Virus record (IMG/VR): IMGVR_UViG_2698536552_000007 | Direction: 5' to 3' (one strand) | DNA from: a virus | Taxonomy: Duplodnaviria; Heunggongvirae; Uroviricota; Caudoviricetes | Length of the DNA stretch: 26,470 nucleotides | In this document: positions 378 to 24,946 of the stretch, in pieces | How positions within the stretch are numbered: position 1 is the first letter of the stretch | Layout: the number at the start of each line of letters is the position of its first letter | Notes under the pieces: model-generated | What the model saw: the letters and a program-made list of their open reading frames with translations, nothing else | What the model was told of the DNA's origin: nothing | The model's database searches: none | Translations under genes and position numbers: made by a program

Positions 378-971
378 ATGGCGCATATACAACTGGTCAA
401 ACAAACCTCTTCTGGTTTACTTCTCCCGGCGACGCCGGAGAGTTGCGATTTTCTGCATCAAATCAAAATAGGTGAGTGGATACACGCAGACTTTAAGCGT
501 GTGCGTAACTACGCATTCCACAAGCGTTTTTTCAAACTCCTGCAACTGGGATTCGATTACTGGACTCCGGTCGGTGGGGCGATCACGCCTCGCGAACGAG
601 AACTGCTGTCTGGTTTCGTTGATTACCTGTGCGAATCAGTTGGTCGGGAACACACGCCAGCCCTGAGTGATGCCGCAGAGCANNNNNNNNNNNNNNNNNN
701 NNNNNNNNNNNNNNNNNNNNNNNNNNNNNNNNNNNNNNNNNNNNNNNNNNNNNNNNNNNNNNNNNNNNNNNNNNNNNNNNNNNNNNNNNNNNNNNNNNNN
801 NNNNNNNNNNNNNNNNNNNNNNNNNNNNNNNNNNNNNNNNNNNNNNNNNNNNNNNNNNNNNNNNNNNNNNNNNNNNNNNNNNNNNNNNNNNNNNNNNNNN
901 NNNNNNNNNNNNNNNNNNNNNNNNNNNNNNNNGTTGAAAATGTGGCCGCACAACTACTGGAGTTTGCGTAA
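378..971 (+). CDS. Nin-region phage protein, DUF1367-like (YdfU family); interior masked by N block 683..932
   Basis: Long ORF with ATG start; its stop overlaps the ATG of the next gene (TAATG at 969..973). Family assignment is from memory of lambdoid prophage Nin-region proteins and is unverified. Confidence 0.45.
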   Translation: MAHIQLVKQTSSGLLLPATPESCDFLHQIKIGEWIHADFKRVRNYAFHKRFFKLLQLGFDYWTPVGGAITPRERELLSGFVDYLCESVGREHTPALSDAAEXXXXXXXXXXXXXXXXXXXXXXXXXXXXXXXXXXXXXXXXXXXXXXXXXXXXXXXXXXXXXXXXXXXXXXXXXXXXXXXXXXXXVENVAAQLLEFA

Positions 972-1261: not shown

Positions 1262-1553
1262 TTTACCCAACGAATACAGGANNNNNNNNNNNNNNNNNNN
1301 NNNNNNNNNNNNNNNNNNNNNNNNNNNNNNNNNNNNNNNNNNNNNNNNNNNNNNNNNNNNNNNNNNNNNNNNNNNNNNNNNNNNNNNNNNNNNNNNNNNN
1401 NNNNNNNNNNNNNNNNNNNNNNNNNNNNNNNNNNNNNNNNNNNNNNNNNNNNNNNNNNNNNNNNNNNNNNNNNNNNNNNNNNNNNNNNNNNNNNNNNNNN
1501 NNNNNNNNNNNNNNNNNNNNNNNNNNNNNNNTTATGTATTGATCGAGTCATAA
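1258..1553 (+). CDS. hypothetical protein, mostly masked (N block 1282..1531); RusA-like by position only
   Basis: ATG at 1258 overlaps the upstream stop. Reading frame cannot be followed through the N block, so the end is either 1542 or 1553. The RusA idea comes only from ybcO-rusA synteny in DLP12; the visible N-terminus does not obviously match RusA. Confidence 0.25.
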
Positions 1554-1558
1554 GTGAG

Positions 1559-1771
1559 GTGCTGGCAGAGCATCCAGGATTGATTTGCATTCTCCGGCAA
1601 CGCTATGAAGGGCGGGGGATGACTAAGCGCAAAATGGCTGAATTGCTAAATGATGCACACCCAGAGTGGTGTTTTAGCACATGCGAAAAACGGATTGCTA
1701 ATTGGTTAGCTGTTGCTGAGTATGCCCTATATATTCCCATGCGTGAATCATTTGCTGAGAAAATGGCTTGA
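1559..1771 (+). CDS. small hypothetical protein (alternative ATG start at 1619); could be a short Q-like late regulator or a Nin-region small protein
   Basis: ORF begins right after an in-frame stop at 1556..1558; a purine-rich stretch precedes the internal ATG at 1619. It lies directly upstream of a terminator hairpin. No recognisable motif. Confidence 0.35.
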   Translation: MLAEHPGLICILRQRYEGRGMTKRKMAELLNDAHPEWCFSTCEKRIANWLAVAEYALYIPMRESFAEKMA

Positions 1772-1851
1772 TTTCTTACGTATAAACTGCTTCAATTTTG
1801 CTATGCTTCGCAAAGCTGTATCGCGAGGCGGATTGCAGACATGGACATCGT

Positions 1852-1878
1852 AAAAAAACCGCTTAATGCGGTTTTTTT
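1852..1878 (+). terminator. rho-independent terminator-like hairpin (A7-CCGC / loop TTAAT / GCGG-T7), possibly bidirectional; candidate tR'-like element
   Basis: Perfect inverted repeat aaaaaaaccgc / gcggttttttt with a 5-nt loop, about 80 nt downstream of the 1559..1771 ORF. Confidence 0.55.
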
Positions 1879-2771
1879 ACGTCAGGAAAGCAGGGGAGAA
1901 TGCTGCTAGTTGGGCAACTGGTCTTTCTGCTCCAAATTATAACAGAGACCAGTTATAGTTTCGGTGCTGTGTTTTTTTTACAATATTGTGATAACACATT
2001 GCTGGCGGGAGTTTTGATATTTCTTGGCAGGGGCTGATGATGCGTTATCCTGATGTCGTCAACTCATATAAAATGAGATGAGAGATCATTGCAGGGTGGT
2101 TTGTAATTCGCTGTTTAGCGGGANNNNNNNNNNNNNNNNNNNNNNNNNNNNNNNNNNNNNNNNNNNNNNNNNNNNNNNNNNNNNNNNNNNNNNNNNNNNN
2201 NNNNNNNNNNNNNNNNNNNNNNNNNNNNNNNNNNNNNNNNNNNNNNNNNNNNNNNNNNNNNNNNNNNNNNNNNNNNNNNNNNNNNNNNNNNNNNNNNNNN
2301 NNNNNNNNNNNNNNNNNNNNNNNNNNNNNNNNNNNNNNNNNNNNNNNNNNNNNNNNNNNNNNNNNNNNNNNNNNNNNNNNNNNNNNNNATTTTTTGTTTT
2401 CCTTTTTTCCAGTCATCTGATGATGACCTGCTTCTTTTTAATCCGGATCGACATCAGTTTTTTAAGATAATTCCTGCGAGTTATATGCATAAATGCCACA
2501 AACTCCGCATTTTATGTGGTTGGGAGTTGCCGGGCGCGCAGTGAGTTTGCTAAGAAAACTCCTGCATGGTGAATCCCCCTGTGCGGTGGGGTGATACCAT
2601 TAACCTTTTCTGTCGCCGACAGGTATCACGAACATTTTGTTCACCGGGAGGCACCCGGCACCATGCACTTCAATAGATTCTCTCCACATTATGGATATTC
2701 TTTCAGAATATCCCACGCAGACTTTGTGTAAATGTTAACAAATGTGCGTTTTATTTGATCTGATTCGCTGT

Positions 2772-2801
2772 TTGAGCGTCCAAAACAACGGTATATATAA
2801 T
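2772..2801 (+). promoter_or_regulatory. candidate sigma70 promoter for the lipoprotein moron (TTGAGC, 18-nt spacer, TATAAT)
   Basis: TTGAGC at 2772..2777 and TATAAT at 2796..2801, about 30 nt upstream of the ATG at 2831, in an AT-rich intergenic stretch. Confidence 0.3.
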
Positions 2802-2830
2802 CCTTTACTATATGACATATGTGAGGAAAA

Positions 2831-3259
2831 ATGGGTTTTCGTAGCGCATCAATTCTTACGTTGATTATTAGTGGGATTATTATCGGGTGCACTGATGCTG
2901 TATCGACAAATTATCATGACCGTACATCATATTACTCCGATAAAGCAATAGAGACACAGTATGTGAGTTCATCTGAACGTACTTCTGATGTTAGTGAGGA
3001 TATCCGTCTGTATGCCCATCAAATCAAGAGCGCCATCGAAAAACAGTTCGGGGATGCGAGTAAGTATTCAGGAAAAGAGTGTACACTGAGAATGCATATG
3101 GCCCCGAATGGCCTTCTACTGGAGGTTAAAAGAGAAAGTGGAGACCTCGATTTATGTCGTGAAGCGATGAATGCGATAAAGAATGCTGATATACCTGCCC
3201 CCCCTTCGCCGGAAGTATATAAAGTATTTCAAAATGGGGTGCTGGATTTTAAACCCTGA
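2831..3259 (+). CDS. lipoprotein with TolA C-terminal (domain III)-like domain
   Basis: SD gtgaggaaaa precedes the ATG. N-terminal signal peptide ends in a lipobox (IIGC). The C-terminal ~85 aa (YAHQIKSAIEKQFGDASKYSGKECTLRMHMAPNGLLLEVK...PPSPEVYKVFQNGVLDFKP) aligns by eye with E. coli TolA domain III (YAGQIKSAIESKFYDASSYAGKTCTLRIKLAPDGMLLDIK...PPSQAVYEVFKNAPLDFKP), including both Cys. Confidence 0.8.
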   Translation: MGFRSASILTLIISGIIIGCTDAVSTNYHDRTSYYSDKAIETQYVSSSERTSDVSEDIRLYAHQIKSAIEKQFGDASKYSGKECTLRMHMAPNGLLLEVKRESGDLDLCREAMNAIKNADIPAPPSPEVYKVFQNGVLDFKP

Positions 3260-3409
3260 TATTTATTGTTTTGTAATAAACGGTTTCGGCTTAGGTTTGT
3301 TCTGACACAGCTACGGCACTGAGCTAAATTTAGCGGATAGTCAGCTCTGAGCCAGTGGCGGACGTAACAACTACTATTGCTGAGATTTTAATGGATTGAG
3401 GAGCAAGAA

Positions 3410-3805
3410 GTGGGATTAAAGAAAATCGTTATGTTGACTTTTTGGGTCGGTTTTGTTGCGGGATGCACACCTTTACACCCTTCAGATTGCCACAAAACTA
3501 CTGCTACAGGTAGTTGCAGTTCAGGACGCTGGGATGATCAGGATGAATGGGGGGCGCAAGCGCGGGGAATCAGAGCTGCAATTAATGCCAAACTTGATGA
3601 GCCGCATAACTGGAAAGGGAAAAAATGCAGGTTGCATATGGAATTCTCTCAGGATGGCACGGCGTTAAAAATATCTACCAGTAACGGTGATAAAGCCTAT
3701 TGCGAAGCGATAAAGTCCGCAGCTCATAAAGCCAAATTTCCGGCCTTCAACAATCCGGAAGTCTACAGAGATTTTCAGAAATCTGGCTTTGACATGCGAG
3801 GTTAG
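3410..3805 (+). CDS. lipoprotein, divergent paralog with TolA domain III-like C-terminus
   Basis: GTG start with SD gaggag 6 nt upstream. Signal peptide with lipobox (VAGC). C-terminal region keeps the GKxC-L-M...G.L...C...A...FPA...PEVY.DFQ pattern shared with the upstream paralog and with TolA domain III. Confidence 0.7.
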   Translation: MGLKKIVMLTFWVGFVAGCTPLHPSDCHKTTATGSCSSGRWDDQDEWGAQARGIRAAINAKLDEPHNWKGKKCRLHMEFSQDGTALKISTSNGDKAYCEAIKSAAHKAKFPAFNNPEVYRDFQKSGFDMRG

Positions 3806-3930
3806 CTCTTCAATTACTATATCTCATTCATAGCAAACTGACAGATTTGATGATGTTCTATATACGAAACCTGTGATGTCAAGTCTGAGCTAATACAAAT
3901 AAACATAATATCAGAGAAATACATTTTATT

Positions 3931-3952
3931 AGCTCGCTACGGCGAGCTTTTT
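3931..3952 (+). terminator. rho-independent terminator (agctcgc / loop tacg / gcgagct + T4) closing the lipoprotein moron
   Basis: Perfect 7-bp stem, 4-nt loop and T-run, about 125 nt after the second lipoprotein gene and about 100 nt before the holin. Confidence 0.55.
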
Positions 3953-4056
3953 ATATTGCATCGTCTCCAGCATATATATCAATTAAGGCTCTGATTGATG
4001 TGTCTGAAAGCCTACACATAATAACTATGCCATCCGTTCCGTGCGGAGGTGAGGCT

Positions 4057-4272
4057 ATGAAATCCATGGACAAAATTTCAACAGGCATTGCCTACGGCAC
4101 CTCCGCAGGCAGTGCTGGCTACTGGTTTTTACAGTTGCTCGATAGAGTAACTCCGTCACAGTGGGCTGCAATCGGTGTGCTGGGTAGTCTGGTATTTGGC
4201 CTGCTGACGTACCTGACAAACCTTTATTTCAAGATTAAAGAAGATAAGCGCAAGGCTGCGAGAGGTGAATAA
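4057..4272 (+). CDS. S: phage-21-type pinholin (class II holin) with dual-start motif MKSM
   Basis: SD ggaggtgagg precedes the ATG. The protein ([31 protein letters not shown]...[13 protein letters not shown]) closely matches phage 21 S as I recall it, with two TMDs and a charged C-terminus. Stop overlaps the endolysin ATG. Confidence 0.88.
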
Positions 4273-4769
4273 TGCCTCCATCATTACGAAAAGTCGTTGC
4301 TGCTGCTATTGGTGGCGGAGCAATTGCTATAGCATCAGTGTTAATCACTGGCCCAAGTGGTAACGATGGTCTGGAAGGTGTCAGCTACATACCATACAAA
4401 GATATTGTTGGTGTATGGACTGTATGTCACGGGCATACAGGAAAAGACATCATGCTCGGTAAAACGTATACCAAAGCAGAATGCAAAACACTCTTGAATA
4501 AAGACCTTGCCACTGTCGCCAGACAAATTAACCCGTACATCAAAGTCGATATACCGGAAACAACGCGCGGCGCTCTTTACTCGTTCGTTTACAACGTGGG
4601 TGCTGGTAATTTCAGAACATCGACGCTTCTTCGCAAAATAAACCAGGGCGATATCAAAGGCGCATGTGATCAGCTACGTCGCTGGACATATGCTGGCGGT
4701 AAGCAATGGAAAGGTCTCATGACTCGTCGTGAGATTGAGCGTGAAATCTGTTTGTGGGGTCAGCAATGA
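4272..4769 (+). CDS. R: SAR endolysin (phage 21 R-like lysozyme)
   Basis: N-terminal Gly/Ala-rich signal-anchor-release segment ([20 protein letters not shown]) followed by a lysozyme-like domain. Sits directly after the pinholin, as in phage 21. Confidence 0.88.
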
Positions 4770-5230
4770 ACAGAGTAACCGCGATTATCTCCGCTCTGGT
4801 TATCTGCATCATCGTCTGCCTGTCATGGGCTGTTAATCATTACCGTGATAACGCCATTACCTACAAAGCCCAGCGCGACAAAAATGCCAGAGAACTGAAG
4901 CTGGCGAACGCGGCAATTACTGACATGCAGATGCGTCAGCGTGATGTTGCTGCGCTCGATGCAAAATACACGAAGGAGTTAGCTGATGCGAAAGCTGAAA
5001 ATGATGCTCTGCGTGATGATGTTGCCGCTGGTCGTCGTCGGTTGCACATCAAAGCAGTCTGTCAGTCAGTGCGTGAAGCCACCACCGCCTCCGGCGTGGA
5101 TAATGCAGCCTCCCCCCGACTGGCAGACACCGCTGAACGGGATTATTTCACCCTCCGGGAACGACTGGTAATGATGCAGGCCCAACTTGAAGGTGCTCAG
5201 CAATACATAACCGAGCAGTGTTTAAAGTAA
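4766..5230 (+). CDS. Rz: Rz i-spanin
   Basis: ATG overlaps the endolysin stop (ATGA at 4766..4769). N-terminal TMD followed by a coiled-coil-like periplasmic domain; Rz1 is embedded in the +1 frame. Confidence 0.85.
4986..5171 (+). CDS. Rz1: Rz1 o-spanin lipoprotein, embedded within Rz
   Basis: SD aaggag 7 nt upstream of the ATG. Lipoprotein signal with Cys (VVVGC) and a proline-rich mature part ([15 protein letters not shown]), entirely inside Rz in another frame. Confidence 0.75.
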
Positions 5231-5367
5231 AATCTTAACTACAATATGATTCATTTTGATGATTGTTTCATAAGGAACAGTGAAGTAAGATCTAAGAGGA
5301 GTTAAATTTTATACAGTATAATCATAATATTGCAGCAAGGTGGTTATAATTGAAAGAATATTTAGAT

Positions 5368-6825
5368 ATGAATACATCTCATGTAAGAGTTGTTACTCAT
5401 ATGTGTGGGTTCCTGGTTTGGCTCTATAGTCTTTCAATGTTGCCACCAATGGTTGTAGCATTGTTTTATAAAGAAAAAAGCCTGTTCGTTTTCTTTATAA
5501 CTTTCGTTATATTTTTTTGCATTGGTGGCGGAGCGTGGTATACAACTAAGAAATCTGGCATTCAATTACGTACCCGTGATGGGTTTATTATAATTGTAAT
5601 GTTTTGGATTTTGTTTTCTGTTATTAGTGCATTCCCTTTATGGATTGACTCAGAACTTAATTTAACGTTCATTGATGCTCTGTTTGAAGGGGTTTCTGGA
5701 ATAACAACAACAGGAGCAACTGTAATTGATGATGTTAGTTCATTACCTCGGGCATATTTGTACTATCGGTCACAGTTAAATTTTATAGGTGGTTTAGGAG
5801 TTATTGTTCTGGCGGTTGCAGTATTGCCATTATTGGGTATTGGTGGTGCAAAGCTTTATCAGTCAGAAATGCCGGGGCCATTTAAGGATGACAAACTCAC
5901 TCCCCGCCTGGCCGATACGTCACGGACACTGTGGATAACTTATTCTTTATTAGGTATTGCTTGTATTGTCTGTTATAGACTTGCAGGAATGCCTTTGTTT
6001 GATGCTATTTGTCACGGGATTTCCACAGTTTCGCTTGGTGGTTTCTCAACTCATAGCGAGAGTATCGGATATTTTAATAACTATTTGGTTGAGCTGGTGG
6101 CTGGTTCTTTTTCCCTGCTATCGGCTTTCAACTTCACTCTTTGGTATATTGTTATTAGCAGAAAAACGATAAAACCTTTAATCAGAGATATTGAACTTCG
6201 TTTCTTTCTGTTAATAGCCTTAGGGGTGATCATTGTTACCTCTTTCCAGGTCTGGCATATAGGTATGTATGACTTGCATGGAAGTTTTATTCATTCGTTT
6301 TTTCTTGCCAGCTCCATGCTCACTGATAATGGTTTAGCTACGCAGGATTATGCAAACTGGCCCACGCACACGATAGTGTTTTTGCTGTTGTCAAGTTTCT
6401 TTGGGGGATGTATAGGTTCAACCTGTGGTGGAATTAAGTCACTTCGATTTCTTATACTTTTCAAACAAAGCAAACACGAGATAAATCAGCTTTCTCATCC
6501 CAGAGCGTTGTTGAGTGTAAATGTAGGAGGGAAGATAGTTACAGATCGTGTAATGAGGTCTGTATGGAGTTTCTTTTTTCTTTATACTCTCTTCACGGTG
6601 TTTTTTATACTGGTGTTAAATGGTATGGGATATGATTTTCTTACATCATTTGCAACAGTGGCTGCATGTATTAATAATATGGGATTAGGTTTTGGGGCTA
6701 CTGCATCGTCATTCGGAGTGCTTAATGACATTGCAAAATATTTAATGTGCATAGCTATGATTCTTGGTCGCCTTGAAATTTATCCTGTTATTATATTGTT
6801 TTCAGGTTTTTTTTGGCGCTCCTAA
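5368..6825 (+). CDS. trkG: TrkG/TrkH-family K+ uptake membrane protein (Rac-prophage trkG-like)
   Basis: Polytopic membrane protein that aligns by eye with E. coli TrkH (GATVIDDVSSLP...VLAVAVLPLLGIGGAKLYQSEMPGPFKDDK vs TrkH GATTLVGLDSLP...[30 protein letters not shown]). 485 aa from ATG 5368; an alternative TTG start at 5350 has a better SD. AT-rich relative to neighbours. K-12 trkG lies after Rz in Rac. Confidence 0.88.
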   Translation: MNTSHVRVVTHMCGFLVWLYSLSMLPPMVVALFYKEKSLFVFFITFVIFFCIGGGAWYTTKKSGIQLRTRDGFIIIVMFWILFSVISAFPLWIDSELNLTFIDALFEGVSGITTTGATVIDDVSSLPRAYLYYRSQLNFIGGLGVIVLAVAVLPLLGIGGAKLYQSEMPGPFKDDKLTPRLADTSRTLWITYSLLGIACIVCYRLAGMPLFDAICHGISTVSLGGFSTHSESIGYFNNYLVELVAGSFSLLSAFNFTLWYIVISRKTIKPLIRDIELRFFLLIALGVIIVTSFQVWHIGMYDLHGSFIHSFFLASSMLTDNGLATQDYANWPTHTIVFLLLSSFFGGCIGSTCGGIKSLRFLILFKQSKHEINQLSHPRALLSVNVGGKIVTDRVMRSVWSFFFLYTLFTVFFILVLNGMGYDFLTSFATVAACINNMGLGFGATASSFGVLNDIAKYLMCIAMILGRLEIYPVIILFSGFFWRS

Positions 6826-6962: not shown

Positions 6963-7751
6963 ATGAGCGAGAAATTAAAGATAGTCTATCGCCCATTACA
7001 AGAATTGTCACCGTATGCGCACAACGCCAGGACGCACAGTACTGAGCAGGTGGCACAACTGGTAGAAAGTATTAAGCAATTCGGCTGGACTAATCCGGTG
7101 CTGATTGACGAAAAGGGCGAAATTATTGCGGGTCACGGTCGTGTTATGGCGGCTGAAATGCTCAAAATGGATTCTGTTCCGGTCATTGTTCTGTCTGGCC
7201 TGACGGATGAGCAGAAAAAGGCGTACCGCCTGGCAGATAATCGCCTGCCGATGAATGCTGGCTGGGATGAAGATCTGTTGCGGATGGAGCTGTCGGACCT
7301 AATCAATGCTGATTTTGATGTCTCCCTGACAGGCTTCATCCCGGCAGAAATTGATGAACTGTTGACGGATGTTTTGCCCGGTACAGGAAATGAGGAGGAG
7401 CCGTATACGACGAAAATTGATACGCCTGTTTATGAGCCGTCAGGCGGTAAACCGGATATCAGTGAACTGTACGACGATACGAAAACTCAGGAGCTGATCA
7501 GCCGGATACGTTCGGCGTCCCTTGATCCTGATATTGAGAAATTCCTCCTGTGTGCAGCAGAACGTCACACGGTGTTTAATTTCAGCAGAATTGCGGACTA
7601 TTACGCTCATGCCCCCGCTGAAATTCAGTGCCTTTTCGAGGAGTCGGCGCTGGTGATCATTGATTATCAGCAGGCTATTGAAAATGGATTTGTCCGAATG
7701 ACGCAGCGCATGGTGGAGATCATGCATGGCGGGGAGGAGGAATATGCGTGA
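6963..7751 (+). CDS. ParB N-terminal (ParB/Srx-like nuclease) domain protein
   Basis: N-terminus KIVYRPLQELSPYAHNARTHS...NPVLIDEKGEIIAGHGRVMAAEML fits the ParB N-domain pattern, including the GxGR motif. C-terminal ~150 aa has unknown function. Its stop overlaps the start of the next gene. Confidence 0.8.
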   Translation: MSEKLKIVYRPLQELSPYAHNARTHSTEQVAQLVESIKQFGWTNPVLIDEKGEIIAGHGRVMAAEMLKMDSVPVIVLSGLTDEQKKAYRLADNRLPMNAGWDEDLLRMELSDLINADFDVSLTGFIPAEIDELLTDVLPGTGNEEEPYTTKIDTPVYEPSGGKPDISELYDDTKTQELISRIRSASLDPDIEKFLLCAAERHTVFNFSRIADYYAHAPAEIQCLFEESALVIIDYQQAIENGFVRMTQRMVEIMHGGEEEYA

Positions 7752-8676
7752 TGATTTTTGCGCCTTTATTCTGACTCACGGGCGACCGGACAAAGTTCTG
7801 ACTTACCGGACGTTGCGTCGTGCTGGCTATACCGGGAAAATTTTTATCGTTGTTGATGATGAAGATAAGACACGGCATCAGTACATGGCTGAATTTGGTG
7901 AACAGGTGCTGGTATTTTCCAAAGCCGATATTGCTAGTCGTTTTGACGAAGCCGATAATTTTAGTGACCGCCGCTCAATTTTTTACGCCCGTAATGCCTG
8001 TTTCGACCAGGCAAAACTGGTCGGGTGTAAATACTTCATTCAGCTCGATGATGATTATCACGAGTTCCAGTTTCGGGTGGATCGCAACTATGACCAGGCC
8101 TATTTCCCGATAAGGAAACTGGATGAGATCCTTTCTGAAATGCTTGCGTACTACGAATCAATACCTGCTCTTTCCATCGCTATGTCGCAGGGCGGGGATT
8201 TTCTTGGTGACAATGGCGGCCATGCTTCGTGGGTGAAACGCAAGGCAATGAACAGCTTTATCTGTTCGGTTGATCGACCGTTCTCATTCATGGGGCGCAT
8301 TAACGAGGATGTGAATACGTACACGAATCTCGGTCGCTGTGGTGAATTGTTTATGACGATCGGTGCTGTCCAGTTAGGGCAGAAACAGACGCAGAAAAAC
8401 AGCGGCGGAATGACCGAGCTGTATCTGGATTCCGGAACCTACGTTAAAAGTTTTTACTCCGTCATGTATGCGCCGTCGTGCGTAAAAATCTCACTTATGG
8501 GTGCCAGTCATAAACGCATTCACCATCAGGTCACCTGGAACAACGCTGCAGTAAAAATCCTTCACGAAAAATACAGGAAGAAGACACCCTGCATATCAAT
8601 GGGGGTGACAAATGATTCCGTATTCGAAAGTCGAGTCTCTGGCAGCGTGCCGGATGACTGCACAACAAATCGCTGA
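7726..8676 (+). CDS. putative soluble GT-A-fold glycosyltransferase-like protein (function uncertain); alternative start at 7744
   Basis: Beta-strand/acidic motifs typical of GT-A enzymes (FILTHGRPDKV...IFIVVDDEDK and, about 80 aa later, YFIQLDDDY as a DxD-like motif). No TM segments. ATG 7744 overlaps the ParB-like stop (7749..7751). Fold assignment is pattern-based only. Confidence 0.5.
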   Translation: MAGRRNMRDDFCAFILTHGRPDKVLTYRTLRRAGYTGKIFIVVDDEDKTRHQYMAEFGEQVLVFSKADIASRFDEADNFSDRRSIFYARNACFDQAKLVGCKYFIQLDDDYHEFQFRVDRNYDQAYFPIRKLDEILSEMLAYYESIPALSIAMSQGGDFLGDNGGHASWVKRKAMNSFICSVDRPFSFMGRINEDVNTYTNLGRCGELFMTIGAVQLGQKQTQKNSGGMTELYLDSGTYVKSFYSVMYAPSCVKISLMGASHKRIHHQVTWNNAAVKILHEKYRKKTPCISMGVTNDSVFESRVSGSVPDDCTTNR

Positions 8677-9961: not shown

Positions 9962-11264
9962 TGTGCCTCAGGCGCGANNNNNNNNNNNNNNNNNNNNNNN
10001 NNNNNNNNNNNNNNNNNNNNNNNNNNNNNNNNNNNNNNNNNNNNNNNNNNNNNNNNNNNNNNNNNNNNNNNNNNNNNNNNNNNNNNNNNNNNNNNNNNNN
10101 NNNNNNNNNNNNNNNNNNNNNNNNNNNNNNNNNNNNNNNNNNNNNNNNNNNNNNNNNNNNNNNNNNNNNNNNNNNNNNNNNNNNNNNNNNNNNNNNNNNN
10201 NNNNNNNNNNNNNNNNNNNNNNNNNNNNNNNNNNNNNNNNNNNNCGCCAGTATCGGGGAACCACTATCTGCAGATCGATGGAGAAGCCACAAACGATCGT
10301 CGGTTTCAAAATTGGTAATGCGTTGGTGGATGAACTGGACATTTTGCCGAAGGAAAAAGCCAGAACGGCGTGGCGCAAGATAATTGCACGTATGCGTTAT
10401 AAGATTGATGGACTTCGCAACGGTATTGACGTTACAACCACGCCGGAAGGATTCAAATTTGTCTACGAGCAGTTTGTTAAAGCCGTGCGTGAAAAAACAG
10501 AGCTGGCCTCACTGTATGGTCTGGTGCAGGCATCTACTTTCGATAATGAAAAGAACCTGCCAGCAGATTACATTCCTTCGCTTCTTGAATCATACCCTCC
10601 AGAGCTGATTAAAGCCTATCTTCGAGGACAGTTTACTAACCTGACAAGTGGTACTGTTTACCATCAGTTTGACCGGAAACTGAATAATTGCGAAGAAGTG
10701 GAGCAGCCAGGGGAGCCGATTTATATTGGGATGGATTTTAACGTTGGAAAGATGGCGGGAATCGTCCATGTGCTGCGTTTGGGGCTTCCATGTGCGGTAA
10801 CTGAAATCATCAATGCCTACGATACGCCGGATATGATCCGCATCATTAAAGAACGCTTCTGGCTGTATGATGGGAATGATTACCGGAAAGTGAGGGAAAT
10901 TTATATTTATCCAGATGCTTCCGGGGATTCCAGAAAATCAAGTAACGCAAGTACGACGGATATAGCCCAGCTTAAGCAGGCTGGTTTTAACGTTGTGGTG
11001 AACAGCTCGAACCCGCCAGTAAAAGATCGCGTTAACTCAATGAATGCAATGTTCTGCAATGCCAATGGTGAGCGTCGCTATAAAGTTAATGTGAAGCGTT
11101 GCCCGTTATATGCCGAATCTCTGGAGCAACAGGTCTGGGATGAGAAGGGGGAGCCTGATAAAAAATCTGGCAATGATCACCCGAATGATGCCGGAGGTTA
11201 TTTCATCGTTAAGCAATTCCCTATTGTCAAACCGACCGGAAGAGTCACATCACTTCGGATTTAA
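9942..11264 (+). CDS. terminase large subunit (N-terminal region masked by N block 9978..10244)
   Basis: About 440-aa ORF following the small subunit and preceding the portal gene; SD aaggag 9 nt upstream of ATG 9942. The ATPase motifs are presumably inside the masked part; the call rests mainly on synteny and size. Confidence 0.75.
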   Translation: MISPTLNVPQARXXXXXXXXXXXXXXXXXXXXXXXXXXXXXXXXXXXXXXXXXXXXXXXXXXXXXXXXXXXXXXXXXXXXXXXXXXXXXXXXXXXXXXXXXRQYRGTTICRSMEKPQTIVGFKIGNALVDELDILPKEKARTAWRKIIARMRYKIDGLRNGIDVTTTPEGFKFVYEQFVKAVREKTELASLYGLVQASTFDNEKNLPADYIPSLLESYPPELIKAYLRGQFTNLTSGTVYHQFDRKLNNCEEVEQPGEPIYIGMDFNVGKMAGIVHVLRLGLPCAVTEIINAYDTPDMIRIIKERFWLYDGNDYRKVREIYIYPDASGDSRKSSNASTTDIAQLKQAGFNVVVNSSNPPVKDRVNSMNAMFCNANGERRYKVNVKRCPLYAESLEQQVWDEKGEPDKKSGNDHPNDAGGYFIVKQFPIVKPTGRVTSLRI

Positions 11265-11266
11265 TT

Positions 11267-12673
11267 ATGGCTGATATATCAACACCCAACCTCGACTATA
11301 ACGATATGCTGGAGGCGTGGGATATTAACGACGCACTGATGGGCGGTACGCTTGAAATGCGCAGGCAGGGGGAAAATTATCTCCCAAAATGGCCTAACGA
11401 AGATGAAGACGCTTATAAAAAACGCCTGTCTGTGGCTACGCTACTTCCTGTGTATGAAGAAAGCATCAAGCAAAATATTGGGCGCATATTTGCAGAGCCG
11501 ACAGTATTGAGTGAGGAAACGCCGGCAAAAATCAGGGAATATGCAGAAAATATCGACATGGAGGGGAGCCGACTGGATGTGTGGGCGCAGCAATTTTTCA
11601 GCCTCGCATTTCAGTATGGTGTGGCACATGCGCTGGTGGACTATCCACGAACGGATATGAAAGAGATTCGGACAAAAGCCGATGAAAACGCGACCGGTGG
11701 TCGTCCGTACGTTACGATGCTGAATCCACGCCAGGTTATTGGATGGAAATCGAAAGTTGAAAAAGGGAAAGTTGTTCTCACTGATTTGCGTATAAAAGAG
11801 GTCATCATTATTGATGGTGATGATTTCGGGCAGAAGAAGGTGGAGCAGATCCGCCATATTATGCCCCGTCGAGTTGAAATTTATCGACGTAGCGAAGGCA
11901 CTAATGGCGAATCTGTCTGGACGCTTCATGAGTCATGGAATACCAGCCGTGATGATATTCCTCTGGTAACACTGTACACGAAGAAAACAGGATTTATGCG
12001 TGGTACACCGCCATTGCTTAATCTTGGCTTGCTGAATATCAAGCACTGGCAAAGCCAGAGCGAGCAGGACAATATTCTTCATGTTGCCCGCGTTCCATTG
12101 CTGGTGGCCTACGGGCTGGACAGGAATGAAGAACTGACGGTTGGTGCATCCACCGCTACGATTTTTGAGGACAGAACAAAAAATGGCCTCGAATATGTTG
12201 AACATAGTGGCGCAGCGATAGAATCTGGCGAAACATCACTTGAGAAGCTGGAAAATCAGATGCGTCATGCCGGCGCTAAACTTCTGCGTGCTGAAAATAC
12301 ATCCACCAAATCTGTTGATCAGACTAATGAAGAGCGAATGCAGGAAAACTCGCCGCTTTATACAATGGCGAACTCCCTCGAAGATGCCCTCGATAATATT
12401 CTCCAGATAATGGCGGAATGGATCGGAGAGAGTTGCGGTGGCAATGTGGATGTGCGCACTGAACTGGATGTATCTGCCCAGGTGTTTGACTCATCCTCCG
12501 CGCTGGCTGTTCAGTCATTGCGTCAGGGCGGTGATATACGTCAGATTGATGCGGTTCGGGTGTTGCAGGCGTTGAAATTTATCGATCAGGATTCCCGTCC
12601 AGAGGAAGTGATCGATGAATTAAAAAATCAGAGTGTAATGCTGATGGAAATCAATGATGCAAACCGTGAATGA
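11267..12673 (+). CDS. portal protein
   Basis: 468-aa ORF directly after the large terminase and before a Mu F-like head morphogenesis gene; acidic C-terminus. Assigned by synteny. Confidence 0.65.
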   Translation: MADISTPNLDYNDMLEAWDINDALMGGTLEMRRQGENYLPKWPNEDEDAYKKRLSVATLLPVYEESIKQNIGRIFAEPTVLSEETPAKIREYAENIDMEGSRLDVWAQQFFSLAFQYGVAHALVDYPRTDMKEIRTKADENATGGRPYVTMLNPRQVIGWKSKVEKGKVVLTDLRIKEVIIIDGDDFGQKKVEQIRHIMPRRVEIYRRSEGTNGESVWTLHESWNTSRDDIPLVTLYTKKTGFMRGTPPLLNLGLLNIKHWQSQSEQDNILHVARVPLLVAYGLDRNEELTVGASTATIFEDRTKNGLEYVEHSGAAIESGETSLEKLENQMRHAGAKLLRAENTSTKSVDQTNEERMQENSPLYTMANSLEDALDNILQIMAEWIGESCGGNVDVRTELDVSAQVFDSSSALAVQSLRQGGDIRQIDAVRVLQALKFIDQDSRPEEVIDELKNQSVMLMEINDANRE

Positions 12674-19619: not shown

Positions 19620-22600
19620 ATGGCAGAGCAAACCTCGCGTCTCGCAATAATTATTGATAGCACTGGAGCGAAAAATAATGCTGACAATCTGACCTCCTCA
19701 TTAGTCAAAATGACGCAGGCTGGGGAAACTGCTGCAANNNNNNNNNNNNNNNNNNNNNNNNNNNNNNNNNNNNNNNNNNNNNNNNNNNNNNNNNNNNNNN
19801 NNNNNNNNNNNNNNNNNNNNNNNNNNNNNNNNNNNNNNNNNNNNNNNNNNNNNNNNNNNNNNNNNNNNNNNNNNNNNNNNNNNNNNNNNNNNNNNNNNNN
19901 NNNNNNNNNNNNNNNNNNNNNNNNNNNNNNNNNNNNNNNNNNNNNNNNNNNNNNNNNNNNNNNNNNNNNNNNNNNNNNNNNNNNNNNCCGGAAAACTTGC
20001 TGCCGCCCAGCAGGAAGCGCAGGCTCAGGCCTTTCAAAGAATGCTGGACAAGATCGACCCTCTGGCTGCGGCGCTAAGAAATCTTGAACAACAGCATGAT
20101 GAACTTAATGCTGCGTTTGCATCCGGGAAAATAAATGGTTCTCAGTTTGAGAATTATAGCCGAAAAATACAGGAAACACGGCGAGAGCTTACCGGAGAGG
20201 CTCAGGCAGAGCGAGAAGCAGCAAAAGCGCATGATGAACAGGTTGTTGCTTTGCAACGTCTGATTGCTCAACTTGATCCTGTCGGAACTGCTTTTAATCG
20301 TCTGGTAGAACAACAGAAACAGCTCAATGAAGCAAAAGCTAAGGGGATGCTTTCTCCTGAAATGTATGAGGAGCTTTCTGGAAAACTTCGTGCTATGCGG
20401 AGTGAGCTTGAGGTTACTCAATCACAATTAAGCAAAACCGGAATGTCGGCAAAACAAACGGCTTTTGCTATGCGCATGTTGCCTGTACAAATGACGGATA
20501 TTGTTGTTGGGTTGTCCACTGGTCAGTCGCCATTTATGGTGTTAATGCAGCAGGGCGGCCAGCTAAAAGATATGTTCGGTGGGATTGGCCCGGCGATCAA
20601 AGGTGTAGGTTCTTATGTGCTGGGATTAATTAATCCTTTTACCCTGGCCGCAGCAGCCGTTGGGGTCTTAGGACTGGCTTACTATAAAGGCTCTCAGGAG
20701 CAGGACGAATTTAATAAATCTCTTATTCTTACCGGAAATCAGTTGGGGACAACCAGCGGGCAATTGGGCGATATAGCTCAACGTGCCGGGAATGCGGCTG
20801 ATTCGACAACTGGTGCTGCGGCGGCAGTATTAAATCAGCTTGTGCGTTCGGGAAAGGTAGCGAGCAGTTCGCTGGAGCAAGTGACGACAGCGATAGTAAA
20901 AACGAGCGAAGTAACAGGAATATCAACCGAACAACTGGTTAATGACTTCAATGAAATTGCAAAGGATCCTGTCAGTGCCATATCAAAACTTAATGATCAG
21001 TACCATTTTCTGACACTTGCGACTTATAACCAGATTAAGGCGCTACAGGATGAAGGGAACCAGCAGGAGGCCGCCCGCATTGCGACAGAAGAATACTCAT
21101 CCTCAATGATCCAGCGCACCAACCAGATTAAAGAAAATCTTGGTTATCTTGAGACTGCATGGAAAGCTGTCGCAGACTCCGCAAAATGGGCATGGGATTC
21201 CATGCTGGATATTGGCCGTGAGGCCTCCCTTGATCAAAAAATCTCAGATGTTCTCCGTCAAATTGATGAAATAGAAAAAAATACCCGACCCGGAGTTTTC
21301 GGGTTAGGTGGCATTGGAGATGGCGGAGCTCAAAATAAAAGGCTGGCACGATTAAAGCAGCAATTGGGCGTACTTCAAGCAGAAAAAATTGCTCAGGACG
21401 TACTAAATTCATCAATAAACGATTACAACAAGCGACAACAGGAAGGAATTGAACTCAGACAGAGAGCAGATGCCTTTTCAAAACAATATCAGACCCGGGA
21501 GCAGCAGAGAGCTAGTGAACTTGCAAAACTGGAAAAGCTAAAGAATCAGTATTCAAAGGAAGAATATAATAATCTTATCGCTCAAATAAATGAGCGTTAT
21601 AAAGATCCAAAGCAACCAAAGGCGAAAGGTTATTCTGATGATGCAGCCCAACGAATGATTGATCATCTGAATCAACAGAATGCGTTACTAAGTTCACAAG
21701 CTGAGTTGACCGTTAAATTAAGTTCCTCTGAACAGGAACTGGTTAAGTGGCGTCAGCGGATTGCCGACCTAGAGTCACGACCATCATCGAAATTAACCCA
21801 GGATCAGAAATCGCTTCTCTTACACCGGGAAGAAATAACCACGTTGATGGAGAAAAATGTTGCGATTGAAAAAAATAACAGGCTAATCAAGGAATCCGCC
21901 GAAATAACAGCATGGCGTGATTCATTGCAGGCTTCGATTGATAATCGTCAGCAGGGGTATGATATTCAGATTGCTGGTTATGGGGTTGGCGATAAAAATC
22001 AGCAACGCCAGCAGGAATTACTGCGGATTGAACATGGATATAACAATCAGCGTCTGCAACTTGAACGTGACTATGCAGATAAATCCCGTGGAATGTCAGA
22101 TCATGTTTTTCAAGAGAAAATGCAGGCTCTGAATGATGCTCTGGAACGGGAAAAAGAAATTGTCAGACAGAAAAACGAGCAGCTCGATATTCAGGCAGGA
22201 GACTGGGTTAGTGGTGCCTCCCAGGGATTCAATAACTGGCTGGATGACACTAAGGATATCAGTGAGCAGATAAAATCAACCACGACTCAGATGTTTGATG
22301 GGATGACCGATGCGCTGGGTGATTTTGTCACGACAGGCAAGGCAAATTTTCGTTCTTTCGCTACTTCCGTGATTTCGGATCTTAGTCGAATAGCATTAAA
22401 GGCTTCAATTACTGGGATTTTCGACAGCATTAGTAACAGTTCTTCTGGGGGGATTTTAGGAACTATCGGGAGTGCTATTAGTAAATTTATTCCGAATGCA
22501 AAGGGCGGTGTTTATGAGTCTCCGTCATTGAGCACGTATTCGAACGGTATTTATGATTCCCCGCAATTTTTTGCTTTTGCAAAAGGGGCTGGTGTTTTTG

Positions 22601-23191: not shown

Positions 23192-23889
23192 TGCAGGACA
23201 TACAACAGGAAACGCTGAATGAATGCATTCGTGCGGAGCAGTCGGCCAGCGTGGTGCTCTGGGAAATCGACCTGACCGAGGTAGGCGGGGATCGCTACTT
23301 TTTCTGCAATGAGCAGAACGAGAAAGGAGAGTCTGTCACCTGGCAGAGTCGGCAGTATCAGGCCTATCCCATTCAGGGGAGTGGATTTGAGATGAACGGC
23401 AAAGGTGCCAGTGCAAGGCCAACGCTGAAAGTCTCTAATCTGCACGGCATGGTCACCGGGATGGCGGAAGACCTGCAGAGTCTGGTCGGCGGAACGGTGG
23501 TCAGGCGTAAGGTTTACGCCCGTTTTCTGGATGCGGTGAACTTCGTCAACGGAAACAGTGACGCCGATCCGGAGCAGGAGGTGATCAGCCGCTGGCGTAT
23601 TGAGCAGTGCAGCGAACTGAGCGCGGTCAGTGCCTCCTTTGTACTGTCCACGCCGACGGAAACGGACGGCGCTGTTTTTCCGGGGCGCATCATGCTTGCT
23701 AATACCTGCACCTGGACCTATCGCGGTGATGAGTGCGGTTATCACGGTCCGGCTGTCGCGGATGAATATGACCAGCCAACGTCCGATATCACGAAGGATA
23801 AATGCAGCAAATGCCTGAGNNNNNNNNNNNNNNNNNNNNNNNNNNNNNNNNNNNNNNNNNNNNNNNNNNNNNNNNNNNNNNNNNNNNNN
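23191..23889 (+). CDS. L: minor tail protein L (3' end inside N block 23820..24105; end estimated)
   Basis: Visible 209 aa are almost identical to lambda gpL as I recall it ([12 protein letters not shown]...TCTWTYRGDECGY...DKCSKCL). End estimated from lambda L length. Confidence 0.85.
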
Positions 23890-24093
23890 NNNNNNNNNNN
23901 NNNNNNNNNNNNNNNNNNNNNNNNNNNNNNNNNNNNNNNNNNNNNNNNNNNNNNNNNNNNNNNNNNNNNNNNNNNNNNNNNNNNNNNNNNNNNNNNNNNN
24001 NNNNNNNNNNNNNNNNNNNNNNNNNNNNNNNNNNNNNNNNNNNNNNNNNNNNNNNNNNNNNNNNNNNNNNNNNNNNNNNNNNNNNNNNNNNNN

Positions 24094-24946
24094 NNNNNNN
24101 NNNNNAGACAGAATCAGCGATTCTGGCGCACGCCCGGCGATGTGCGCCAGCGGAGTCGTGCGGCTTCGTGGTGAGAACGCCGGAGGGGGAAAGATATTTT
24201 CCCTGCGTGAATATCTCCGGTGAGCCGGAGGATTATTTCCGGATGTCGCCGGAGGACTGGCTGCAGGCAGAAATGCAGGGTGAGATTGTGGCGCTGGTCC
24301 ACAGCCACCCCGGTGGTCTGCCCTGGCTGAGTGAGGCCGACCGGCGGCTGCAGGTGCAGAGTGATTTGCCGTGGTGGCTGGTCTGCCGGGGGGCGATTCA
24401 TAAGTTCCGCTGTGTGCCGCATCTCACCGGGCGGCGCTTTGAGCACGGGGTGACGGACTGTTACACGCTGTTCCGGGACGCTTACCATCTGGCGGGNNNN
24501 NNNNNNNNNNNNNNNNNNNNNNNNNNNNNNNNNNNNNNNNNNNNNNNNNNNNNNNNNNNNNNNNNNNNNNNNNNNNNNNNNNNNNNNNNNNNNNNNNNNN
24601 NATTGAGATGCCAGATTTTCATCGTGAGGACGACTGGTGGCGTAACGGCCAGAATCTCTATCTTGATAATCTGGAGGCCACAGGGCTGTATCAGGTGCCG
24701 TTGTCAGCGGCGCAGCCGGGCGATGTGCTGCTGTGCTGTTTTGGTTCATCGGTGCCGAATCATGCCGCCATTTACTGTGGTGACGGCGAGCTGCTGCACC
24801 ATATTCCTGAACAACTGAGCAAACGAGAGAGGTACACCGACAAATGGCAGCGACGCACACACTCCCTCTGGCGTCACCGGGCATGGCACGCATCTGCCTT
24901 TACGGGGATTTGCAGCGATTTGGCCGCCGCATCGACCTTCGTGTGA
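24094..24946 (+). CDS. K: tail assembly protein K (start inside N block; also interrupted by N block 24498..24601)
   Basis: TESAILAHARRCAPAESCGFVV...HSHPGG (JAB/MPN-like) before the second N block and IEMPDFHREDDWW...CCFGSSVPNHAAIYCGDGELLHH (NlpC/P60-like) after it. The frame changes across the mask. 3' end overlaps the I start. Confidence 0.75.

Follow-up and report, generated by a model that had tools for sequence, protein, structure and literature searches.

A mobile prophage cassette encodes two predicted lipoproteins with the TolA domain III fold that may act as decoys for Tol-dependent invaders

We examined a pair of adjacent genes, here called P1 and P2, in the IMG/VR virus record IMGVR_UViG_2698536552_000007 (Caudoviricetes). 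This stretch of 26,470 nucleotides, which we call the window, comes from an intact Rac-type lambdoid prophage of E. coli, of which it forms the late region, and the parts of the cassette described below lie on its plus strand. From the list of open reading frames, Pfam, phmmer, AlphaFold2 (AF2) and Foldseek, P1 (2831..3259) is predicted to encode a prolipoprotein of 142 aa. P2 (3410..3805) starts with GTG and is predicted to encode a prolipoprotein of 131 aa. Both genes are found exactly where an earlier reading of the DNA, made from the letters alone and referred to here as the sequence-only reading, had placed them. P1 is preceded by a Shine-Dalgarno sequence, GAGGA, at 2823..2827 (read from the sequence), and the intergenic spacer (3260..3409) holds that of P2, GAGGAG, at 3398-3403. 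The G+C content is 42% in P1 and 46% in P2, compared with 47% in the window and 49% in the lysis genes.

The claim that both genes encode lipoproteins, each with a signal peptide and a lipobox Cys, holds at the level of sequence pattern. Read from the sequence, the N-terminus of P1 is MGFRSASILTLIISGIIIG-C20-TD and that of P2 is MGLKKIVMLTFWVGFVAG-C19-TP. Each has the charged n-region, hydrophobic h-region and lipobox by which bacterial lipoproteins are recognised: in P1, R4 is followed by SILTLIISGIIIG and then by C20, and in P2, K4 and K5 are followed by IVMLTFWVGFVAG and then by C19, both fitting the pattern [LVI][ASTVI][GAS]C. The predicted signal peptides cover aa 1-19 of P1 (lipobox IIG-C20, codon 2888-2890) and aa 1-18 of P2 (lipobox VAG-C19, codon 3464-3466). 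The residue at the +2 position is Thr in P1 and P2, and Ala, Ser or Gly in the P2 homologues. Because neither protein carries the +2 Asp that signals inner-membrane retention under the E. coli +2 rule, both are predicted to be sorted to the outer membrane. Between the lipidated Cys and the C-terminal domain lies a tether of 25-33 residues that AF2 models as disordered (aa 21-53 in P1); in P2 this part of the protein includes a conserved Cys27-x8-Cys36 and SGRWDDQDEWG segment.

The start of P2 deserves comment, since PGAP places it at an ATG at 3431 (giving a 375-nt coding sequence in E. coli SE11), and the charged Lys-Lys n-region is then lost. We favour the GTG at 3410 because the GAGGAG lies 6 nt before it, because plasmid homologues have Met at this position, and because the n-region is kept. 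The PGAP start is probably wrong.

The remainder of each protein has the fold of TolA domain III (TolAIII), which occupies aa 54-142 of P1 (nt 2990-3256) and aa 45-131 of P2 (nt 3542-3802). P1 matches the Pfam family PF06519 (TolA C-terminal) at 82.6 bits (E 2.4e-23) and P2 does so at 54.6 bits (E 1.3e-14), where the gathering score is 25 bits. When phmmer was run against the PDB, P1 matched the E. coli TolAIII entries 1S62, 3QDP, 2X9A and 1TOL at E ~1e-27, along with new TolQRA cryo-electron microscopy entries, and P2 matched the E. coli TolAIII entries at E ~5e-9. The AF2 models have a predicted local distance difference test score (pLDDT) above 90 for residues 54-142 of P1 and 45-131 of P2, with the N-terminal 40-50 residues disordered. 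The top Foldseek match of the P1 model is 2x9a_B, a TolAIII chain (TM-score TMt 0.96, root-mean-square deviation (rmsd) 0.6 Å), and that of the P2 model is 3qdp, also TolAIII (TMt 0.89, rmsd 1.1 Å). The sequence-only reading had proposed this likeness for both proteins and had named a lack of structural or profile similarity to TolA domain III as grounds for dropping it; such similarity is clearly present by Pfam, phmmer, AF2 and Foldseek alike.

The resemblance is closest for P1. Residues 55-142 align with TolA 334-421 without gaps and are identical at 52 of 88 positions (59%), in line with an estimate by eye of roughly half, and the alignment retains both disulfide Cys (the equivalents of C363 and C388) and the terminal LDFKP. 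Beyond its own family, the nearest relative of P1 is E. coli TolA (60%), all other representatives being at 56% or below. The two conserved Cys that had been pointed out in each protein are invariant across the alignments of both, the disulfide itself being predicted.

P1 and P2 are members of the TolA_C domain family and are not TolA proteins, because three features that define TolA are missing. In place of domain I, the N-terminal transmembrane segment that couples to TolQ-TolR, each has a lipoprotein signal peptide. Domain II, the long periplasm-spanning helix, is absent from these short proteins, and the genes lie between a phage Q gene and a holin gene, outside the tol-pal operon (tolQ-tolR-tolA-tolB-pal-cpoB). 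The NCBIfam models of full-length TolA, TIGR02794 and NF007065, match only over their last ~90 positions (model 265-362 and 293-386). On domain III alone, P1 nevertheless passes the TIGR02794 equivalog cut-off (75.6 vs 59.45 bits), which is why RefSeq/PGAP names it "tolA: cell envelope integrity protein TolA". This name is a misnomer, and it represents a systematic misannotation in hundreds of genomes.

The PGAP name would sit well with the idea that the two genes are non-functional pieces of tolA, captured by the prophage and hitch-hiking in it. We regard this idea as effectively refuted. Both genes have signal peptides, lipoboxes and ribosome-binding sites, they are intact in roughly 800-1300 complete genomes, and their ratios of nonsynonymous to synonymous substitution (dN/dS) are 0.08-0.12 for P2 and 0.36 for P1 against its variant. 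These values point to functional genes under purifying selection, strongly so in the case of P2. A recent capture from the host tolA gene was considered as a separate matter and rejected. In a blastn search of 5426 complete E. coli genomes, P1-type genes were found in 898 (~17%), nearly always on the chromosome; since every E. coli should carry tolA, a search that matched only these genomes reveals no nucleotide similarity between P1 and chromosomal tolA.

The one claim of the sequence-only reading that did not survive is that P2 is a more divergent paralog of P1. P2 is about equally distant from P1 (32% identity) and from TolA (34%), and it belongs to a widespread family of its own. That P2 is a duplicate of P1 is ruled out by this low identity, by the different N-terminal architecture and by the different distribution of the two genes.

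We found that P1 and P2 travel together as a compact unit. Prophage comparison delimits a mobile cassette at 2721..4057, comprising a promoter, P1, the spacer, P2 and a terminator, up to the start of the holin gene. The promoter candidate (2772..2801), a sigma-70 promoter-like site with the structure TTGAGC (2772-2777)-N18-TATAAT (2796-2801), agrees with the consensus at 10 of 12 positions and is the top site of a consensus scan within 1700..4300. The intrinsic terminator (3931..3953) consists of a 7-bp stem, AGCTCGC/GCGAGCT, closed by a TACG loop (hairpin 3931..3948) and followed by TTTTT. The scans, which detect sequence signals, thus found both the candidate promoter ahead of P1 and the terminator after P2 that had been proposed. 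P1 and P2 are probably co-transcribed, as no terminator was detected in the spacer between them. SOS control was rejected because there is no LexA box near the cassette. A search for structured RNA around the terminator found, beyond the hairpin, folding no better than that of shuffled sequence (z = -0.45), and no tRNAs were found in the Q-to-S region.

The cassette lies between a Q-type antiterminator gene (DUF1133/Phage_antitermQ) and genes for a P21-type holin, a lysozyme and Rz/Rz1. Pfam identifies the lysis genes downstream and, upstream, a DUF1133 protein that it scores as a marginal relative of Phage_antitermQ, so the proposed placement in the Q-to-lysis slot stands. We read the Q-to-cassette region from SE11, as it is partly masked in the window. 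The window has seven such masked runs of N (683..932, 1282..1531, 2124..2388, 9978..10244, 19738..19987, 23820..24105 and 24497..24601), none of which reaches the cassette. The 1.4 kb around the cassette is 100% identical to many E. coli chromosomes, SE11 among them. In SE11, the annotation upstream runs through the replication genes ydaT/ydaU/ydaV, DUF1367, DUF1364 and the DUF1133 protein to P1/P2, and downstream through essD/rrrD/Rz and trkG to the head and tail genes.

Among 80 IMG/VR prophage loci carrying P1, P1 and P2 were always found together. Two or more different lambdoid backbones share the block at ~2721..4057 with at least 97% identity. One of them is that of the window; the second has a different Q region, an STnc100-like RNA at 79% identity, a holin at ~93% and an unrelated endolysin. 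The phage record mEp460_ev081 carries 2640..4000 of the window at 99.9% identity, where a PF03589-type Q gene precedes it and a different lysis cassette follows. In addition, a variant of P1 (66% identical) occurs as a single gene in Stx-phage-like prophages, flanked by Q, an AraC-like gene and nanS-p/holin. This is the exact position of stx in related phages, and it bears out the suggestion that the slot is the one that holds stx and other lysogenic-conversion genes. Exchange of the block is therefore independent of the flanking backbone. More than 49,000 other phage records lack it. Because a block of such high identity recurs in different lambdoid backgrounds, the cassette behaves as a moron, which would here be an autonomous transcription unit (predicted promoter, two genes and terminator) set between the Q/late-leader region and the lysis cassette. 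It resembles the known lambdoid Q-to-S morons, namely stx and the AraC-like and nanS-p genes of Stx-type prophages, in its slot, in having a predicted promoter and terminator of its own, and in its exchange between backbones. It differs from the stx-type morons in that it carries a pair of envelope lipoprotein genes instead of a toxin gene.

The stretch immediately before the cassette promoter has features of its own. A match to the STnc100 small RNA family of Rfam covers 2534..2720 of the window (11935..12121 of the SE11 stretch) at 86.6 bits, against a gathering score of 47, and corresponds to the late leader after Q. Other backbones that bear the cassette have this stretch at just ~79% identity, which assigns it to the phage backbone instead of the cassette. 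Two more terminator-like sequences, each a hairpin followed by a run of T, lie between Q and the cassette at ~1868..1894 and ~2217..2239 (11269..11295 and 11618..11640 of the SE11 stretch), the first of them with weak isrK-like Rfam matches. They are consistent with a Q-antiterminated late leader.

The cassette sits within the late operon, just ahead of the lysis genes, as would be expected if P1 and P2 acted in the lytic cycle as saboteurs of Tol-Pal. The two genes would be transcribed late, in a Q-dependent manner, along with those for the holin, endolysin and spanins. Their tethered TolAIII products would draw TolB (or Pal) off TolA, and the outer membrane would be loosened, with more vesiculation and easier lysis and release. 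TolA beta3 mutants that are unable to bind TolB are fully tol (leaky) (PMC4339652), so competition for TolB should indeed destabilise the outer membrane. We nonetheless consider this account unlikely. The cassette has its own predicted promoter and a terminator before the holin gene, and the phage already encodes Rz/Rz1 spanins. The TolAIII fold is also very rare in catalogued phages, being found in 1 of 50,697 GenBank phage records and giving no significant match in the BFVD viral structure library. Finally, plasmids and chromosomes have no lysis programme, yet P2-type genes are common there.

The distribution of the P2 family is particularly informative. P2-type genes were present in 1269 of the 5426 complete E. 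coli genomes (~23%), in 826 chromosomal and 536 plasmid places. The family as a whole comprises 370 clusters at 78-89% identity, from Citrobacter, Enterobacter, Klebsiella, Raoultella, Serratia and others. Ahead of the domain, its members share a nearly invariant segment (window 3464..3541, aa 19-44), C-x7-C-HKTTATGS-C-SSGRWDDQDEWG, which contains two extra Cys and an acidic, Trp-rich motif; the segment may faintly resemble the Gly/Ser/Trp/acidic TolB boxes of colicins E9 and A. The family is found at ~87% nucleotide identity on ~600 plasmids. On pO157, the homologue (~88% aa identity) lies between the hok/psiAB leading region and toxB. On IncI/K-type conjugative plasmids (e.g. IncK2/Z), the homologue (~88% aa) lies directly downstream of the relaxase gene nikB, in the same orientation as nikA-nikB, and adjoins trbABC. 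Chromosomal members occur in the reference genomes of 26 species, and their flanks are non-syntenic even within Enterobacter; this is how a floating single-gene islet behaves, unlike a core gene. Sequence comparison sets the P2 family apart from P1 as a mostly non-phage family. Given the single hit among phage records and the lack of a BFVD match, these are genes of mobile elements and islets and do not make up a phage family.

While tracing these plasmid copies, we noted two metagenome-assembled genome contigs, assigned to "Lachnospiraceae" and "Treponemataceae", that carry an IncI/K-type nikB followed by a P2 gene. The P2-type protein on them is identical to that of an IncK2/Z plasmid of Shigella sonnei, and both contigs are almost certainly mis-binned enterobacterial plasmid.

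The chromosomal copies could be taken to mean that these proteins, those of the P2 family especially, are accessory components of the envelope. A TolAIII-like lipoprotein of this kind would bind Pal, TolB, CpoB or some other partner and tune outer-membrane tethering or constriction, and mobile elements would carry it as cargo. Single P2-family genes under strong purifying selection in the chromosomes of many Enterobacteriaceae reference genomes would fit such a role, and the nearly invariant Cys-x8-Cys/SGRWDDQDEWG segment suggests a specific partner. Against this, the non-syntenic flanks, seen even between Enterobacter species, are the behaviour of a mobile islet; in E. coli, the P2-type gene is found only on prophages and plasmids; and the gene has been captured repeatedly, by three kinds of mobile element, which suggests a transferable benefit. 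We therefore think a general envelope role quite unlikely.

Short TolAIII lipoproteins extend well beyond P1 and P2. A profile search of 1.84 billion representative proteins returned 591 matches. Of the best 150 of these, 97 do not exceed 170 aa in length, and a lipobox is present in at least 63 of these short proteins. The consensus of the short relatives is the TolAIII core, including a terminal FKNAxLDFK strand. A profile search with diverse short lipoproteins returned 13 proteins and added little. On Klebsiella plasmids of ~10 kb and ColRNAI type, we found a two-gene operon that encodes a TolAIII lipoprotein (LLLTA-C) and a protein with a signal peptide and a TonB_C domain (42.5 bits). In the K. 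pneumoniae example NZ_CP031718.1 (10,060 bp; 1512..5277), the two proteins have 123 and 121 aa, respectively. The operon is divergent from a cloacin-like tRNase bacteriocin gene with its immunity and lysis genes, and the entire block is present on 238 PLSDB plasmids, mostly of the Klebsiella ColRNAI type. TolA and TonB are the two import hubs for bacteriocins. Elsewhere, a short TolAIII gene follows a thioredoxin-fold gene on a Klebsiella IncFII plasmid, and short TolAIII lipoprotein genes adjoin GmrSD and HEPN genes in S. marcescens and a cdiB/cdiA-type two-partner secretion locus in K. oxytoca. At a metagenome locus, such a gene follows a double-HNH_2 nuclease gene beside hipBA. In loci of Serratia spp., the neighbour of the short TolAIII gene is one that we take, without confirmation, to be Cas6f/Csy4. 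The domain match as such is already in databases, and what is new is the lipoprotein architecture, the behaviour of the cassette, the separate P2 family, and the wider family with its TonB counterpart.

These plasmids raise the question of whether the P2 family serves conjugation, in surface or entry exclusion or in protecting the envelope during mating, with the prophage copy being incidental. On IncI/K-type plasmids the gene's place immediately downstream of nikA-nikB, co-oriented and adjoining trbABC, would suit this idea, and related 9.3-kb ColE-type bacteriocin plasmids have, in the adjacent accessory region, a gene annotated as an Exc2 exclusion lipoprotein. The P2 family is, however, also found in prophages and chromosomal islets, and it has no similarity to known exclusion proteins. 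To our knowledge, TolA has no established role in conjugative entry, which counts further against this idea, and we judge it improbable.

If P1 and P2 interact with the ligands of TolA, their docking surfaces should matter. In TolA, the TolB N-terminus, colicin N (ColN) and g3p-N1 bind the last strand, A415-P421, by beta-strand addition, and the substitutions D418P or K420P abolish binding of ColN, g3p and TolB and give a full tol (leaky) phenotype (PMC4339652). Colicin A (ColA) uses the opposite face, L375-P380 plus K368, K379 and K396, through cation-pi lysines (PMC3365938). The beta3 strand is APLDFKP in TolA, GVLDFKP in P1 and SGFDMRG in P2, and P1 conserves the equivalents of L417, D418 and K420. 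At the ColA face, P1 has the strand LLEVKR, which is similar to that of TolA, together with two of the three lysines (K379 and K396), and P2 has none of the three. P1 closely copies the TolAIII of E. coli itself, and P2 is a different, horizontally mobile version whose range of ligands is probably different.

The best-supported reading of P1 and P2, and one to which we give an even chance of being right, is that they are tethered decoys against Tol-dependent colicins or filamentous phages. The analysis establishes how the genes are built, the fold, the lipobox, purifying selection, and the mobility and distribution of the cassette; under the decoy reading we infer outer-membrane localisation, expression in the lysogen, ligand binding and the resulting phenotype. 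Both lipoproteins, each a lipidated Cys, a flexible tether and a TolAIII fold, would be placed on the inner face of the outer membrane via Lol. Because they have neither domain I, the TolQR-coupled anchor, nor domain II, they cannot transmit the proton-motive force. The inner face of the outer membrane would be where colicin translocation domains, g3p-N1 and TolB-Pal are first met, and there the energy-uncoupled TolAIII copies would compete with genuine TolA for its ligands. These would include the TolB N-terminus, on which E-type colicins rely, and the TolA-binding epitopes of ColN, ColA and g3p. Invaders would thus be captured unproductively at the outer membrane before genuine TolA could engage them, and the lysogen, or the host of a P2-family plasmid, would gain tolerance to Tol-dependent bacteriocins, resistance to filamentous phages, or both.

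Several observations would be accounted for by decoys of this kind. The LDFKP strand kept in P1, the lack of a +2 Asp, and the relatives on conjugative and bacteriocin plasmids and beside conflict genes are circumstantial evidence in favour. A decoy role would also explain why bacteriocin plasmids pair a TolAIII lipoprotein with a TonB C-terminal domain, and would fit the presence of the P2 family on plasmids whose pili attract TolA-dependent filamentous phages. PDB entry 2x9a is the g3p of phage IF1 bound to TolAIII, and IF1 attaches to I-type pili.

Known systems offer partial parallels. P1 and P2 share with domain III of E. coli TolA (~334-421; 1S62, 1TOL, 2X9A, 3QDP/3QDR) the fold (rmsd 0.6-1.1 Å) and the Cys pair. 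They differ in that a lipoprotein signal peptide and a short disordered tether replace domains I and II, that they are predicted to be anchored to the opposite membrane and cannot be energised, and that a prophage moron, instead of the tol-pal operon, houses their genes. The closest functional parallel comes from the laboratory: Levengood-Freyermuth, Click and Webster reportedly showed in 1993 that E. coli cells exporting soluble TolAIII to their periplasm tolerate colicins, resist Ff phages and become leaky, and that work and one by Howard and colleagues in 2001 are said to have used periplasmic TolAIII and the TonB C-terminal domain as dominant-negative fragments. Competition of a free periplasmic hub domain with the energised protein, which yields tolerance to the colicins and phages using that hub, is the same mode that we propose for P1 and P2. 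The laboratory fragments are artificial, soluble and overexpressed and make cells leaky, whereas P1 and P2 are natural, predicted to be lipid-anchored, and borne by mobile elements.

Two phage-encoded routes to resistance are also instructive. Immunity conferred by g3p (pIII) involves the same interaction, that of g3p-N1 with TolAIII (complex in 1TOL and 2X9A): the g3p of a resident phage occupies TolA, giving colicin tolerance and superinfection immunity. P1 and P2 would be the mirror image of this, since in g3p immunity a ligand blocks the hub, and in their case the ligand would be sequestered by a hub copy. Cor (of phi80, N15 and mEp phages) and Llp (of T5) are likewise small phage-encoded outer-membrane lipoproteins that are expressed from morons or early genes and block an entry route. 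They inactivate the outer-membrane receptor FhuA and have no sequence relation to P1 and P2, which copy a periplasmic hub domain. By analogy, P1 and P2 are best filed with the mobile-element-encoded envelope lipoproteins that block entry routes, the mechanism being plausible but unproven.

A number of points weigh against the decoy reading. The promoter that would drive expression in the lysogen is a consensus match alone, and a cassette lying in the late operon will also be transcribed in lytic growth, where it could play some part in lysis. That P2 binds the classical E. coli ligands may be doubted, as the ColA-site lysines are gone and the beta3 strand is changed. A decoy would compete for TolB and could harm the Tol-Pal system of its own host; from the leakiness seen when TolAIII is overexpressed in the laboratory, such a cost would lead one to expect low expression or an altered affinity. 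The ordinary-looking chromosomal neighbourhoods of P2-family genes in Enterobacter and its relatives are compatible with a housekeeping envelope role, and the neighbourhoods with conflict genes are anecdotal. Finally, no defence model of PADLOC matches P1 or P2.

Existing annotation and literature say little about these genes, which databases name by their domain alone. PHROG 5772, which holds the family, is labelled "unknown function". No functional study of P1/P2-type genes was found in the searchable literature, which consisted mostly of non-subscription papers, so that this absence is not proof. Plasmid "tolA" genes appear there merely as annotation (PMC6807383, PMC10269471). One lead, a ciprofloxacin-induced gene of CP-933O in EDL933 that had been linked to "TolA" (PMC11125564), was followed and rejected, as the region at 1.88-1.93 Mb has no TolA-domain gene.

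A broader proposal, which we hold tentatively and think somewhat more apt to fail than to hold, is that mobile elements of Enterobacteriaceae (prophages, conjugative and bacteriocin plasmids, and chromosomal islets) carry an unrecognised class of import-hub decoys. These would be energy-uncoupled TolAIII copies tethered to the outer membrane, accompanied on some plasmids by a soluble periplasmic TonB C-terminal domain. Their carriers would tolerate a broad range of Tol- and Ton-dependent bacteriocins as well as filamentous phages, whichever receptor the invader uses, and among E. coli prophages the class would be represented by the Rac-type cassette with its two different decoys in tandem. TolA domain III is a passage point for all group A colicins and filamentous phages, and tolerance to them is usually explained by tol mutations, which have a heavy envelope cost, or by specific immunity proteins. 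If the proposal is true, a transferable hub decoy would be a new route to broad-spectrum tolerance, and it would change how colicin and phage sensitivity data from natural isolates are interpreted. It would also matter for bacteriocin- or phage-based therapeutics, and be relevant to the question of why filamentous phages specific for their pili are tolerated by conjugative plasmids. For Tol-Pal research, the family provides natural TolAIII variants tuned by evolution.

The genes that follow the cassette are those of a lysis module and its downstream neighbours. The lysis cassette (4057..5230) is of the phage-21 type, with a P21-family holin, a lysozyme with a hydrophobic N-terminal segment resembling a signal-anchor-release (SAR) sequence, and Rz, in which Rz1 is embedded (4986..5171). 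The potassium transporter gene trkG (5350..6825) is a moron between Rz/Rz1 and a ParB-like gene, and it is annotated in the same way in SE11. The Rac remnant of K-12 presumably carries trkG too, without the Q-to-R region and thus without the P1/P2 cassette. Further downstream, the gene for a ParB/Srx-N-domain protein (6963..7751) overlaps that for a 316-aa TAGT protein (PF20691, TET-associated glycosyltransferase; 7726..8676). The pair lies just before the terminase genes and is a possible DNA-modification module.

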